Origin: Escherichia coli O127:H6 str. E2348/69 | GTDB taxonomy: Bacteria; Pseudomonadota; Gammaproteobacteria; Enterobacterales; Enterobacteriaceae | Assembly: GCF_000026545.1 (NCBI RefSeq) | Contig: NC_011601.1 | Strand: one strand, 5' to 3' | DNA length: 64,000 nucleotides | In this document: piece by piece, positions 3,733-61,717 of the stretch | Layout of the letters: each line of letters starts with the position of its first letter | Position numbering within the stretch: position 1 is the stretch's first letter | Notes under the pieces: model-generated | What the model was told of the DNA's origin: nothing | Databases searched by the model: none | What the model saw: the letters and a program-made list of their open reading frames with translations, nothing else | Position numbers and translations under genes: made by a program

Positions 3733-5019
3733 ATGAAACTCTACAATCTGAAAGATCACAATGAGCAGGTCAGCTTTGCGCAAGCCGTAACCCAGGGGTT
3801 GGGCAAAAATCAGGGGCTGTTTTTCCCGCACGACCTGCCGGAATTCAGCCTGACTGAAATTGATGAGATGCTGAAGCTGGATTTTGTCACCCGCAGTGCG
3901 AAGATCCTCTCGGCGTTTATTGGTGATGAAATCCCGCAGGAAATCCTGGAAGAGCGCGTACGCGCGGCGTTTGCCTTCCCGGCTCCGGTCGCCAATGTTG
4001 AAAGCGATGTCGGTTGTCTGGAGTTGTTTCACGGGCCAACGCTGGCATTTAAAGATTTCGGCGGTCGCTTTATGGCACAAATGCTGACCCATATTGCGGG
4101 CGATAAGCCAGTGACCATTCTGACCGCGACCTCCGGTGATACCGGAGCGGCAGTGGCTCATGCTTTCTACGGTTTGCCGAATGTGAAAGTGGTTATCCTC
4201 TATCCACGAGGCAAAATCAGTCCACTGCAAGAAAAACTGTTCTGTACATTGGGCGGCAATATTGAAACTGTTGCCATCGACGGCGATTTCGATGCCTGTC
4301 AGGCGCTGGTGAAGCAGGCGTTTGATGATGAAGAACTGAAAGTGGCGCTGGGGCTAAACTCAGCTAACTCGATTAACATCAGCCGTTTGCTGGCGCAGAT
4401 TTGCTACTACTTTGAAGCTGTTGCGCAGCTGCCGCAGGAAGCGCGCAACCAGCTGGTTGTCTCGGTGCCAAGCGGAAACTTCGGCGATTTGACGGCGGGT
4501 CTGCTGGCGAAGTCACTCGGTCTGCCGGTAAAACGTTTTATTGCTGCGACCAACGTGAACGATACCGTACCACGTTTCCTGCACGACGGTCAGTGGTCAC
4601 CCAAAGCGACTCAGGCGACGTTATCCAATGCGATGGATGTTAGCCAGCCAAACAACTGGCCGCGTGTGGAAGAGTTGTTCCGCCGCAAAATCTGGCAACT
4701 GAAAGAGCTGGGGTATGCAGCCGTGGATGATGAAACCACGCAACAGACAATGCGTGAGTTAAAAGAACTGGGCTATACCTCGGAGCCGCACGCTGCCGTA
4801 GCTTATCGTGCGCTGCGTGACCAGTTGAATCCAGGCGAATATGGCTTGTTCCTCGGCACCGCGCATCCGGCGAAATTTAAAGAGAGCGTGGAAGCGATTC
4901 TCGGTGAAACGTTGGATCTGCCAAAAGAGCTGGCAGAACGTGCTGATTTACCCTTGCTTTCGCATAACCTGCCCGCCGATTTTGCTGCGTTGCGTAAATT
5001 GATGATGAATCATCAGTAA
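3733..5019 (+). CDS. thrC: threonine synthase
   Basis: 428-aa ORF MKLYNLKDHNEQVSFAQAV, start abuts thrB stop. Confidence 0.95.
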   Translation: MKLYNLKDHNEQVSFAQAVTQGLGKNQGLFFPHDLPEFSLTEIDEMLKLDFVTRSAKILSAFIGDEIPQEILEERVRAAFAFPAPVANVESDVGCLELFHGPTLAFKDFGGRFMAQMLTHIAGDKPVTILTATSGDTGAAVAHAFYGLPNVKVVILYPRGKISPLQEKLFCTLGGNIETVAIDGDFDACQALVKQAFDDEELKVALGLNSANSINISRLLAQICYYFEAVAQLPQEARNQLVVSVPSGNFGDLTAGLLAKSLGLPVKRFIAATNVNDTVPRFLHDGQWSPKATQATLSNAMDVSQPNNWPRVEELFRRKIWQLKELGYAAVDDETTQQTMRELKELGYTSEPHAAVAYRALRDQLNPGEYGLFLGTAHPAKFKESVEAILGETLDLPKELAERADLPLLSHNLPADFAALRKLMMNHQ

Positions 5020-5039
5020 CATCTATTCATTATCTCAAT

Positions 5040-5076
5040 CAGGCCGGGTTTGCTTTTATGCAGCCCGGCTTTTTTA
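5040..5076 (+). terminator. thr operon terminator
   Basis: inverted repeat gccggg...cccggc followed by tttttt just downstream of thrC stop. Confidence 0.6.
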
Positions 5077-5232
5077 TGAAGAAAATATGGAGAAAAACGA
5101 CAGGGAAAAAGGAGAAATTCTCAATAAATGCGGTAACTTAGAGATTAGGATTGCGGAGAATAACAACTGCCGTTCTCATCGCGTAATCTCCGGATATCGA
5201 CCCATAACGGGCAATGATAAAAGGAGTAACCT

Positions 5233-5529
5233 GTGAAAAAGATGCAATCTATCGTACTCGCACTTTCCCTGGTTCTGGTCGCTCCCATGGCAGCGCAGGC
5301 TGCGGAAATTACGCTAGTCCCGTCAGTAAAATTACAGATAGGCGATCGTGATAATCGTGGCTATTACTGGGATGGCGGTCACTGGCGCGACCACGGCTGG
5401 TGGAAACAACATTATGAATGGCGAGGCAATCGCTGGCACCCACATGGACCGCCGCCATCGCCGCGCCATAACAAGCACAATGATCATCGTGGCGATCATC
5501 GTCCGGGGCCTGACAAACATCATCGCTAA
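5233..5529 (+). CDS. yaaX: DUF2502 family secreted His/Arg/Trp-rich protein
   Basis: 98-aa ORF with signal peptide [23 protein letters not shown] and H/R/W-rich repeats; GTG start. Confidence 0.8.
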
Positions 5530-5578
5530 ATATCAATGCCGGATTGCCATCCGGCATTATCCGGCATTGACTACAAAC

Positions 5579-6355
5579 TTAACGTTGTTCGTAGCGTTTA
5601 AACACCAGTTCGCCATTGCTGGAGGAAGCTTCATCAAAGAAGTAACCTTCGCTATTAAAACCAGTCAGTTGCTCTGGTTTGGTCAGCCGATTTTCAATAA
5701 TGAAACGACTCATCAGACCGCGTGCTTTCTTAGCGTAGAAGCTGATTATCTTAAATTTGCCGTTCTTCTCATCGAGGAACACTGGCTTGATAATCTCGGC
5801 ATTCAATTTCTTCGGCTTCACCGATTTAAAATACTCATCTGACGCCAGATTTATCACTACATTATCGCCTTGTGCTGCGAGCGCCTCGTTCAGCTTGTTG
5901 GTGATGATATCTCCCCAGAATTGATACAGATCTTTCCCTCGGGCATTCTCAAGACGTATCCCCATTTCCAGACGATAAGGCTGCATTAAATCGAGCGGGC
6001 GCAGTACGCCATACAAGCCGGAAAGCATTCGCAAATGCTGTTGGGCAAAATCGAAATCGTCTTCGCTGAAGGTTTCGGCCTGCAAGCCAGTGTAGACATC
6101 ACCTTTAAACGCCAGAATTGCCTGGCGGGCATTCTCCGGTGTGAAATCTGGCTGCCAGTCATGAAAGCGAGCGGCATTGATACCCGCCAGTTTGTCGCTG
6201 ATGCGCATCAGGGAGCTAATCTGCGGGGGCGTCAGTTTCCGCGCTTCATGGATCAGCTGCTGGGCGTTGTCTAACAGCTCCGGCAGCGTATAGCGCGTGG
6301 TGGTCAACGGGCTTTGGTAATCAAGCGTTTTCGCAGGTGAAATAAGAATCAGCAT
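5579..6355 (-). CDS. yaaA: peroxide stress protein YaaA (UPF0246)
   Basis: 258-aa [19 protein letters not shown]. Confidence 0.9.
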
Positions 6356-6424
6356 ATCCAGTCCTTGCAGGAAATTTATGCCGACTTTAGCAAAAAAAGA
6401 GAATGAGTTGATCGATAGTTGTGA

Positions 6425-7855
6425 TTACTCCTGCGAAACATCATCCCACGCGTCTGGAGAAAGCTGGCGACCGATCTCCGGATAACGCAACGGATCAAAC
6501 ACCGGGCGCACGCCGAGTTTACGCTGGCGTAGATAATCACTGGCAATGGTATGAACCACAGGCGAGAGCAATAATATGGCGGTCAAATTGGTAATAGCCA
6601 TGCAGGCCATAATGATATCTGCCAGTTGCCACATCAGCGGAAAACTTAGCAAGGTGCCGCCGATGACCGTTGCGAAGGTGCAGATCCGCAGACACCAGAT
6701 CGCTTTAGGGTTGTTCAGGCGTAAAAAGAAGAGATTGTTTTCGGCATAAATGTAGTTGGCAACGATGGAGCTGAAGGCAAACAGAATAACCACGAGGGTA
6801 ACAAACTCCGCACCCCAGGAACCCATTAGCACCCGCATCGCCTTCTGGATAAGCTGAATACCTTCCAGCGGCATGTAGGTTGTGCCGTTACCCGCCAGTA
6901 ATATCAGCATGGCGCTTGCCGTGCAGATGACCAGGGTGTCGATAAAAATGCCAATCATCTGGACAATTCCTTGCGCTGCCGGATGCGGAGGCCAGGACGC
7001 AGCTGCCGCTGCCGCGTTTGGCGTCGACCCCATTCCCGCCTCATTGGAAAACATACTGCGCTGAAAACCGTTAGTAATCGCCTGGCTTAAGGTATATCCC
7101 GCCGCGCCGCCTGCAGCTTCCTGCCAGCCAAAAGCACTCTCAAAAATAGACCAAATGACGTGGGGAAGTTGCCCGATATTCATTACGCAAATTACCAGGC
7201 TGGTCAGTACCCAGATTATCGCCATCAACGGGACAAACCCCTGCATGAGCCGGGCGACGCCATGAAGACCGCGAGTGATTGCCAGCAGAGCAAAGACAGC
7301 GAGAATAATTCCTGTCACCAGCGGAGGAAAATCAAAAGAAAAACTCAGGGCGCGGGCAACGGCGTTCGCCTGAACTCCGCTGAAAATTATGCCGTAGGCG
7401 ATGAGCAAAAATAGGGCGAACAGAACGCCCATCCAGCGCATCCCCAGCCCGCGCGCCATATACCATGCCGGTCCGCCACGAAACTGCCCATTAACGTCAC
7501 GTTCTTTATAAAGTTGTGCAAGGGAACATTCGGCAAACGAGGTCGCCATGCCGATAAACGCGGCAACCCACATCCAGAAGACGGCACCTGGTCCACCGGC
7601 GGTAATAGCCAGCGCAACGCCAGCCAGGTTGCCGCTACCCACGCGCGCCGCAAGACTGGTACACAATGACTGAAATGAGGTTAAACCGCCTGGCTGTGGA
7701 TGAATGCTATTTTTAAGACTTTTGCCAAACTGGCGGATGTAGCGAAACTGCACAAATCCGGTGCGAAAAGTGAACCAACAACCTGCGCCGAAGAGCAGGT
7801 AAATCATTACCGATCCCCAAAGGACGCTGTTAATAAAGGAGAAAAAATCTGGCAT
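6425..7855 (-). CDS. yaaJ: alanine/glycine:cation symporter (AGCS family)
   Basis: 476-aa polytopic membrane ORF. Confidence 0.9.
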   Translation of the reverse strand: MPDFFSFINSVLWGSVMIYLLFGAGCWFTFRTGFVQFRYIRQFGKSLKNSIHPQPGGLTSFQSLCTSLAARVGSGNLAGVALAITAGGPGAVFWMWVAAFIGMATSFAECSLAQLYKERDVNGQFRGGPAWYMARGLGMRWMGVLFALFLLIAYGIIFSGVQANAVARALSFSFDFPPLVTGIILAVFALLAITRGLHGVARLMQGFVPLMAIIWVLTSLVICVMNIGQLPHVIWSIFESAFGWQEAAGGAAGYTLSQAITNGFQRSMFSNEAGMGSTPNAAAAAASWPPHPAAQGIVQMIGIFIDTLVICTASAMLILLAGNGTTYMPLEGIQLIQKAMRVLMGSWGAEFVTLVVILFAFSSIVANYIYAENNLFFLRLNNPKAIWCLRICTFATVIGGTLLSFPLMWQLADIIMACMAITNLTAILLLSPVVHTIASDYLRQRKLGVRPVFDPLRYPEIGRQLSPDAWDDVSQE

Positions 7856-28637: not shown

Positions 28638-28706
28638 TGCCGGATGCGATGCTGACGCATCTTATCCGGCCTACAGATTGCTGCGAAATCGTAGGTCGCA
28701 TCCGGC
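28638..28706. repeat. REP (repetitive extragenic palindromic) element pair
   Basis: gccggatgcgatgctgacgcatcttatccggcctac plus inverted partner gtaggtcgcatccggc. Confidence 0.5.
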
Positions 28707-28737
28707 AAAAATCCTCAAAATATAAGAGCAAACCTGC

Positions 28738-42089: not shown

Positions 42090-42170
<81 letters not shown>

Positions 42171-61625: not shown

Positions 61626-61717
61626 TGTAGGCCTGATAAGACGCGGCCCGCGTCGCATCAGGCAATCGGCGCAAAATTGCCGGATGCGGCGTGAACGCCT
61701 TCTCCGGCCTACCGAAC
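61626..61717. repeat. REP element cluster
   Basis: aggcctgataagacgcggcccgcgtcgcatcaggc and gccggatgcggcgtgaacgccttctccggcctac. Confidence 0.5.

Follow-up and report, generated by a model that had tools for sequence, protein, structure and literature searches.

The yaaX-yaaA spacer and its hairpin

The window analysed here is a stretch of 64,000 nucleotides from Escherichia coli O127:H6 str. E2348/69. Within it, thrC (3733-5019) is followed by yaaX (5233-5529, + strand), which encodes a DUF2502 protein of 98 amino acids with a GTG start and a TAA stop at 5527-5529, and by yaaA (5579-6355, - strand), which encodes a peroxide stress protein of 258 amino acids whose stop codon reads TTA on the + strand (5579-5581); yaaJ (6425-7855, - strand) lies beyond them. 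The yaaX and yaaA coordinates, taken from the list of open reading frames and the RefSeq annotation, leave 49 bp (5530-5578) between the two convergent genes, just as a preliminary description of this DNA had it, and this spacer is an allele free of any BIME or RIP. The locus was found in 5,424 of 5,426 complete E. coli genomes, and in 118 of the 5,426 the 451 nt around the spacer are at least 99% identical to the window. An Rfam search of positions 5000-6600 at a permissive threshold returned nothing but a chance snoRNA match inside yaaA, and the literature that we searched for yaaX held nothing on the spacer.

The spacer reads ATATC AATGCCGGAT TGCC ATCCGGCATT ATCCGGCATT GACTACAAAC, of which the repeat string quoted in the preliminary description covers 5536-5569. 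The left arm of a hairpin, TCAATGCCGGAT (5533-5544, + strand), includes the REP-head motif TGCCGGAT and has AATGCCGGAT (5535-5544) as its core. A loop of four nucleotides, TGCC (5545-5548), separates it from the right arm, ATCCGGCATT (5549-5558), which is made up of the Z-REP head ATCCGGCA followed by TT. The core and the right arm form a perfect inverted repeat, with 10 of 10 positions paired. A second copy of ATCCGGCATT follows head to tail at 5559-5568 and, together with the GA at 5569-5570, pairs with 5533-5544 in an alternative stem of 12 bp (12 of 12 positions). TRF described this tandem (5549-5568) as 2.0 copies of a 10-nt period with a 100% match.

Both the hairpin and the 10-mer stand out from their surroundings. 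The 10-mer occurs three times in the 64 kb, each time in the spacer, against an expectation of 0.2, and RNA folding of a 71-nt region gave minimum free energies of -25.5 kcal/mol on the + strand (z = -5.5) and -33.5 kcal/mol on the - strand (z = -6.6), with none of 200 shuffled sequences folding as well. Taken together, the occurrence count and the z-scores place these features beyond chance. The second copy of the arm contributes approximately 5 to 6 kcal/mol to the fold, and the free energy of the stem-loop as RNA lies between about -19 and -33 kcal/mol. Across Escherichia the stem is kept and the loop varies: it is TGCC in the window, AACA in the K-12 haplotype, and TACC or TGACC in other Escherichia.

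The preliminary description had likened these repeats to a truncated REP, and the likeness held up. The motifs ATCCGGCA and TGCCGGAT are the E. coli REP head, and the spacer hairpin has the corresponding outer stem, (T)GCCGGATG... / ...CATCCGGC(A), with TGCCGGAT at 5537-5544 and ATCCGGCA at 5549-5556 and again at 5559-5566. REPs at 28638, 28700, 42093, 42158, and 61678 of the window have this motif as their head; the BIME-like REP pairs elsewhere in the window, at 28638-28710, 42093-42168, and 61627-61712, served as the reference for it. The hairpin does not have the remaining features of a complete REP, which is an imperfect palindrome of 30 to 40 nt that possesses an inner stem (GCGGCG...CGCC) and carries a mismatch in its stem. 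Its stem is perfect, with 10 to 12 bp, a 4-nt loop, and 24 to 28 nt in all. The conserved GTAG/CTAC found directly at the foot of a REP palindrome is also missing from this place in the spacer, which reads ATCCGGC and then ATTGA there; its only CTAC, at 5571-5574, is 5 nt out of register and is replaced by CTGC in K-12. TnpA(REP) needs both GTAG and the stem mismatch (PMC3333891), so by these criteria the REP-associated transposase should not act on the spacer hairpin.

Comparison with intact elements placed the 10-mer within the REP more exactly. In the K-12 RIP described below, the inverted Z REP has ATCCGGCATT as its intrinsic outer end, and so does that of a paralogous RIP located between nadR and ettA, which ends in ...CGCATCCGGCATT. 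Followed by CAG(C/T) and GCCTGATGCG, the 10-mer makes up the standard head-to-head BIME junction, and the BIME-2 cluster between wcaK and wzxC contains such a head-to-head junction, CGCATCCGGCATTCAGTGCCTGATGCG (canonical form ATCCGGCATTCAGTGCCTGATGCG), five times. The end of the nadR-ettA RIP and the wcaK-wzxC junctions together identify ATCCGGCATT as the head of the Z REP followed by the two bases (TT) that open the linker. The hairpin occupies the place where an inverted Z REP would be expected, and the outer stem of such a REP is kept on both sides, with the inner stem and the GTAG tag lost. It is what remains of a REP rather than a complete one.

The K-12 REP pair and its distribution

In K-12 strains W3110 and MG1655, yaaX lies at 5234-5530 and yaaA at 5683-6459. 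The preliminary description had put the K-12 spacer at about 100 bp longer than that of the window, and direct alignment gave 152 bp against 49 bp, a difference of 103 bp rather than an identical length. The K-12 spacer begins with the hairpin AATGCCGGGT-AACA-ATCCGGCATT, continues with the additional 103 bp, and then carries a second ATCCGGCATT. These 103 bp are composed of CAGC, a Y REP (GCCTGATGCGACGCTGGCGCGTCTTATCAGGCCTAC), an AT-rich linker of 32 nt, and an inverted Z REP (GTAGGCAGGATAAGGCGTTCACGCCGC) whose head continues into the second 10-mer; the RIP of K-12 is thereby located exactly between the equivalents of window copies 1 and 2. Within the linker, ATTCAATATATTG departs from the IHF consensus WATCAANNNNTTR at one position, and the same Y-linker-Z unit is found between nadR and ettA. 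Durrant et al. (PMC11208160) list a 37-nt REP query, GCCTGATGCGACGCTGGCGCGTCTTATCAGGCCTACG, with which the left (Y) REP agrees letter for letter. BIME-1 has been described as a y REP and a z REP parted by a long conserved linker, often with an IHF site (Ton-Hoang et al., PMC3333891), and the layout of the K-12 unit matches this description.

The window and K-12 alleles share their chromosomal site, the hairpin at its flank, and the 10-mer with which the RIP ends on its outer side. They differ in that the spacer of the window has no Y REP, no IHF-type linker, and no inverted Z REP, and hence no single-copy, tail-to-tail pair of the BIME-1 or RIP kind, as well as in the loop and the yaaX tail. 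We take the K-12 element to be the one called "RIP1" (U00096 5565-5669), with its IHF site; the RefSeq feature table of NC_000913.3 lists neither a "RIP1" repeat_region nor any other repeat feature at this site.

We then counted the alleles in the 5,426 complete E. coli genomes. By these seed-based counts, which leave about 150 genomes unclassified, the RIP is intact in 3,367 genomes and carries an IS621 in its left REP in 649 (12%), a window-type flank without RIP is present in 1,251, and a K-12-type flank without RIP is present in 3. The 103-bp unit of Y REP, IHF-type linker, and inverted Z REP is accordingly a feature of K-12 and of about 74% of E. coli. The suspicion in the preliminary description that REP units had been gained or lost here between lineages was thus well founded, in that the site is polymorphic across the 5,426 genomes and the extra DNA of K-12 is a REP pair. 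It had overlooked the variable number of 10-mers, the old divergent haplotypes, the targeting by IS621, and the recent RIP losses that are directly visible.

The IS621 copies were all inserted in the same way. In E. coli CKJ_1000_3.1 (locus L004, 1658-2936), a 1,279-bp IS621 interrupts the left REP of a K-12-type RIP, and a further example is found in locus L089. The insertion lies between ATCAGGCCT and ACG (ATCAGGCCT^...CTACG), with CT at both junctions. This junction is identical in all 649 genomes; consistently, 660 genomes matched the window query in two separate parts. The natural target of the IS621 bridge RNA is ATCAGGCCTAC, located in REPs (Durrant et al. 2024, PMC11208160). Like the targets in that report, the left REP of the K-12-type allele contains ATCAGGCCTAC, and it is there that the 649 genomes have the element. 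Neither ATCAGGCCTAC nor ATCGGGCCTAC, the 11-nt target with its CT core, occurs in 5530-5578, and the E2348/69-type site is therefore not available to IS621.

Copy number of the 10-mer, loss of the REP pair, and divergent haplotypes

Among the RIP-less genomes, the 10-mer varies from one to five head-to-tail copies on a constant flank, which is the behavior of a VNTR. A single copy is present in about 1,054 of them, 972 of which were recovered in a second search. At least two copies are present in 197 of the 1,251 (about 115 with exactly two) and at least three in 82. Most strains of phylogroups B2, D, and F have one copy and the E2348/69 group has two. Three to five are found in a group with Nissle 1917, ATCC 25922, and ABU 83972: there are three in Nissle 1917, ATCC 25922, and clone D i2, and direct reading gave four in ABU 83972 (L094, 71-110) and five in ECAMP047 (L095, 61-110). 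The sequenced multicopy alleles (the window, SSGw2 [L002], ABU 83972, and ECAMP047) have the yaaA SNPs CGTTGTTCG in common, and these are absent from one-copy alleles. The shared SNPs indicate that the multicopy alleles constitute one lineage, an expansion within a B2 sublineage.

Given that the K-12 RIP sits exactly between two 10-mers and that the window has the same two abutting, the tandem ATCCGGCATT-ATCCGGCATT could be read as the footprint of a precise RIP excision, for example by a REP-associated Y1 transposase, that left both flanking repeats behind. We consider this scarcely credible. The paralogous RIP ends in the same way, and the 10-mer to the right of the K-12 RIP is thus the RIP's own end and not a target duplication; transposition of the IS200/IS605 type by Y1 enzymes makes no target duplication in any case. 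Moreover, every flank that bears a RIP differs from the window flank by 25%, no RIP occurs on a window-type flank in the 5,426 genomes, and three real RIP losses, described below, left one copy and not two. The series of 1, 2, 3, 4, and 5 copies within one flanking haplotype shows that the tandem pair arose by replication slippage rather than as an excision scar. We rejected the 10-mers as a target site duplication or excision scar on the strength of the VNTR series, the one-copy losses, and the paralogous RIP end. The slippage was plausibly helped by the hairpin.

Loss of the RIP could be observed directly. HH45 (L090), AJ6 (L091), and HH97 (L092) have a K-12-type yaaX tail, the AACA loop, no RIP, and a single 10-mer (at approximately 351-397 of each locus), which corresponds to a precise loss of 113 bp from one ATCCGGCATT direct repeat to the other. 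The flanking SNPs differ among the three strains, which suggests that the deletions were independent. RIP loss through REP-head repeats has therefore been observed, and a recent gain has not been seen.

The difference between the window and K-12 is of another age. A hyperdivergent block at 5466-5548 takes in the last ~21 codons of yaaX (from about codon 78) along with the loop of the hairpin and its left arm; the window has what we call the class II version of it. Over this block of ~90 bp the window and K-12 share 75% identity with 13 gap columns, compared to 97.4 to 97.5% in the flanks (5' yaaX and 3' yaaA). In the seven sequences that we compared, the version of the block tracks the presence or absence of the RIP perfectly. 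Four loci from Escherichia other than E. coli, E. fergusonii not among them, show that both haplotypes extend beyond the species: E. albertii and Escherichia sp. MOD1-EC7003 have the RIP-bearing one, and two divergent genomes, L005 and Escherichia sp. E1V33, have the RIP-less one. Between K-12 and E. albertii, identity is 94% in the block, 96% in the RIP, and 86 to 93% in the flanks. The block represents either an old trans-species polymorphism or interspecies recombination.

The class II yaaX tail of the window resembles the ...DHRPGPDRKHH of Citrobacter and Enterobacter. By this comparison the K-12 tail, ...HGGHGPGKHHR, is derived, and the window-type tail looks ancestral. The His/Arg/Asp-rich tail of the window also contains two short direct repeats of GATCATCGT (5482-5502), and the length of yaaX among species ranges from 95 to 104 amino acids, with a 12-nt insertion in L005.

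These observations bear on whether the short allele ever had a RIP. It may be ancestral and never have carried one, in which case the K-12 haplotype acquired the Y-linker-Z unit, either through REPIN transposition or through an expansion of BIMEs anchored on a REP-head-like arm. Outgroups agree with such a gain: in Enterobacter, Lelliottia, and yaaX-bearing Citrobacter the spacers are short and hold one unrelated hairpin but no REP, and it is the tail tied to the short allele that resembles theirs, the K-12 tail being the derived one. On the other hand, the K-12 hairpin arm, CAGC, and Y REP together make a canonical head-to-head junction, which suggests that a BIME already included the hairpin, and loss by way of the 10-mer repeats was observed three times compared to no gain in 1,251 RIP-less genomes. 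In addition, the RIP haplotype occurs in E. albertii, with a divergence of the order found between the two species, and is thus no younger than the short one can be demonstrated to be. We regard the gain as a serious possibility, somewhat short of even odds. The two alleles sit on old haplotypes, and for the ancient difference between them the BIME-type junction and the observed deletions incline us, by a slight lean, to an old loss over a gain in the K-12 haplotype, with the short REP-free spacers of the outgroup genera and the ancestral-looking tail fitting the gain.

The two haplotypes could constitute an ancient trans-species polymorphism that selection has maintained throughout Escherichia, in which the RIP or the VNTR copy number would adjust how yaaA and yaaX form their 3' ends or terminate translation, an idea that we regard as highly improbable. 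As a separate observation, Citrobacter and Salmonella without yaaX (L009, L012, L017, L032, and L033) have REP-like palindromes, such as GTAGGCCGGATAAGGCG...CATCCGGC, in the thrC-yaaA spacer. REP-like elements are frequent between thrC and yaaA in genera that have no yaaX, and the region downstream of yaaA is thus a recurrent REP site across the Enterobacteriaceae.

A stem-loop probably shared by two transcript ends

The stem-loop begins 3 nt past the yaaX stop and 8 nt from the yaaA stop codon, and in this position it would most likely give the two convergent mRNAs a 3'-end structure in common. It may act as a transcription end point or as a barrier to 3' exonucleases, as REPs do, and could possibly affect terminating ribosomes. 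The work of Higgins and Newbury reportedly showed REP stem-loops to be stabilizers of mRNA 3' ends and attenuators, and Liang, Rudd, and Deutscher reportedly found in 2015 that REPs close to stop codons lower expression. The spacer hairpin resembles these REP stem-loops in being a stable structure just past a stop codon, for yaaX as well as for yaaA. It differs from them in being shortened and perfect, with neither inner stem nor GTAG tag.

A strong, GC-containing stem-loop between convergent genes might also suggest a classical bidirectional Rho-independent terminator whose likeness to a REP is coincidental. Indeed, yaaX-bearing Enterobacter without a REP here (L018 and L021) has at the same position a textbook bidirectional terminator, an unrelated GC hairpin flanked by A- and T-tracts. 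The spacer of the window has the GC-rich stem-loop of such a terminator, but no U-rich tract directly 3' of the stem: the tail is ACUACAAAC on the + strand (that of yaaX), with no U-tract, and AUAUUUAG on the - strand (that of yaaA), with just UAUUU. A scan for consensus promoters and terminators called no terminator in the spacer. Furthermore, all 10 nt of the arm are accounted for as the Z-REP head plus TT, and real REPs adjoin this arm in K-12. We consequently regard a classical terminator as unlikely, and the poor U-tracts and the scan without a call favor a 3'-end stem-loop or exonuclease barrier instead.

We conclude, with a probability of roughly 85%, that the spacer represents a polymorphic REP/BIME site in its RIP-less form, in which a REP-remnant hairpin with an arm of 10 bp duplicated by slippage would provide a 3' structure shared by the two genes. 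At the DNA level, comparison of the genomes shows that slippage of the 10-mer produces the one to five copies and that recombination or slippage between the REP-head direct repeats can remove the RIP and leave one 10-mer. Polymorphism of REPs and BIMEs at fixed intergenic sites, in presence or absence as well as in copy number, has been described since the 1990s. The number of BIMEs at a given locus has been reported to differ from strain to strain (Bachellier et al. 1997, cited in PMC8049555; Ton-Hoang et al. 2012, PMC3333891). The case described here is similar in that REP-derived units vary at a fixed intergenic site, apparently by replication or recombination between direct repeats, and it is different in that the lineage of the window varies the 10-bp REP head only and not a whole REP pair. 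That REPINs are amplified and deleted locally has been attributed to host replication and not to the transposase (PMC8049555), and both the slippage and the repeat-mediated RIP loss agree with this view.

The feature is of a known kind, a REP/BIME polymorphism combined with a small VNTR, and the locus is a clean, ordinary example of it; its locus-specific details appear to be absent from the literature that we searched, but routine. It offers three things of use. The three deletions provide direct evidence that a RIP can be lost by way of the 10-bp direct repeats that REP heads make. The 10-bp VNTR is a simple lineage marker that separates E2348/69-type strains from the group of Nissle 1917, ATCC 25922, and ABU 83972. 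Finally, the hairpin with one to five copies of its arm, the RIP, the RIP with IS621, and the deleted RIP constitute a natural allele series for testing the effect of a REP pair on convergent mRNAs.
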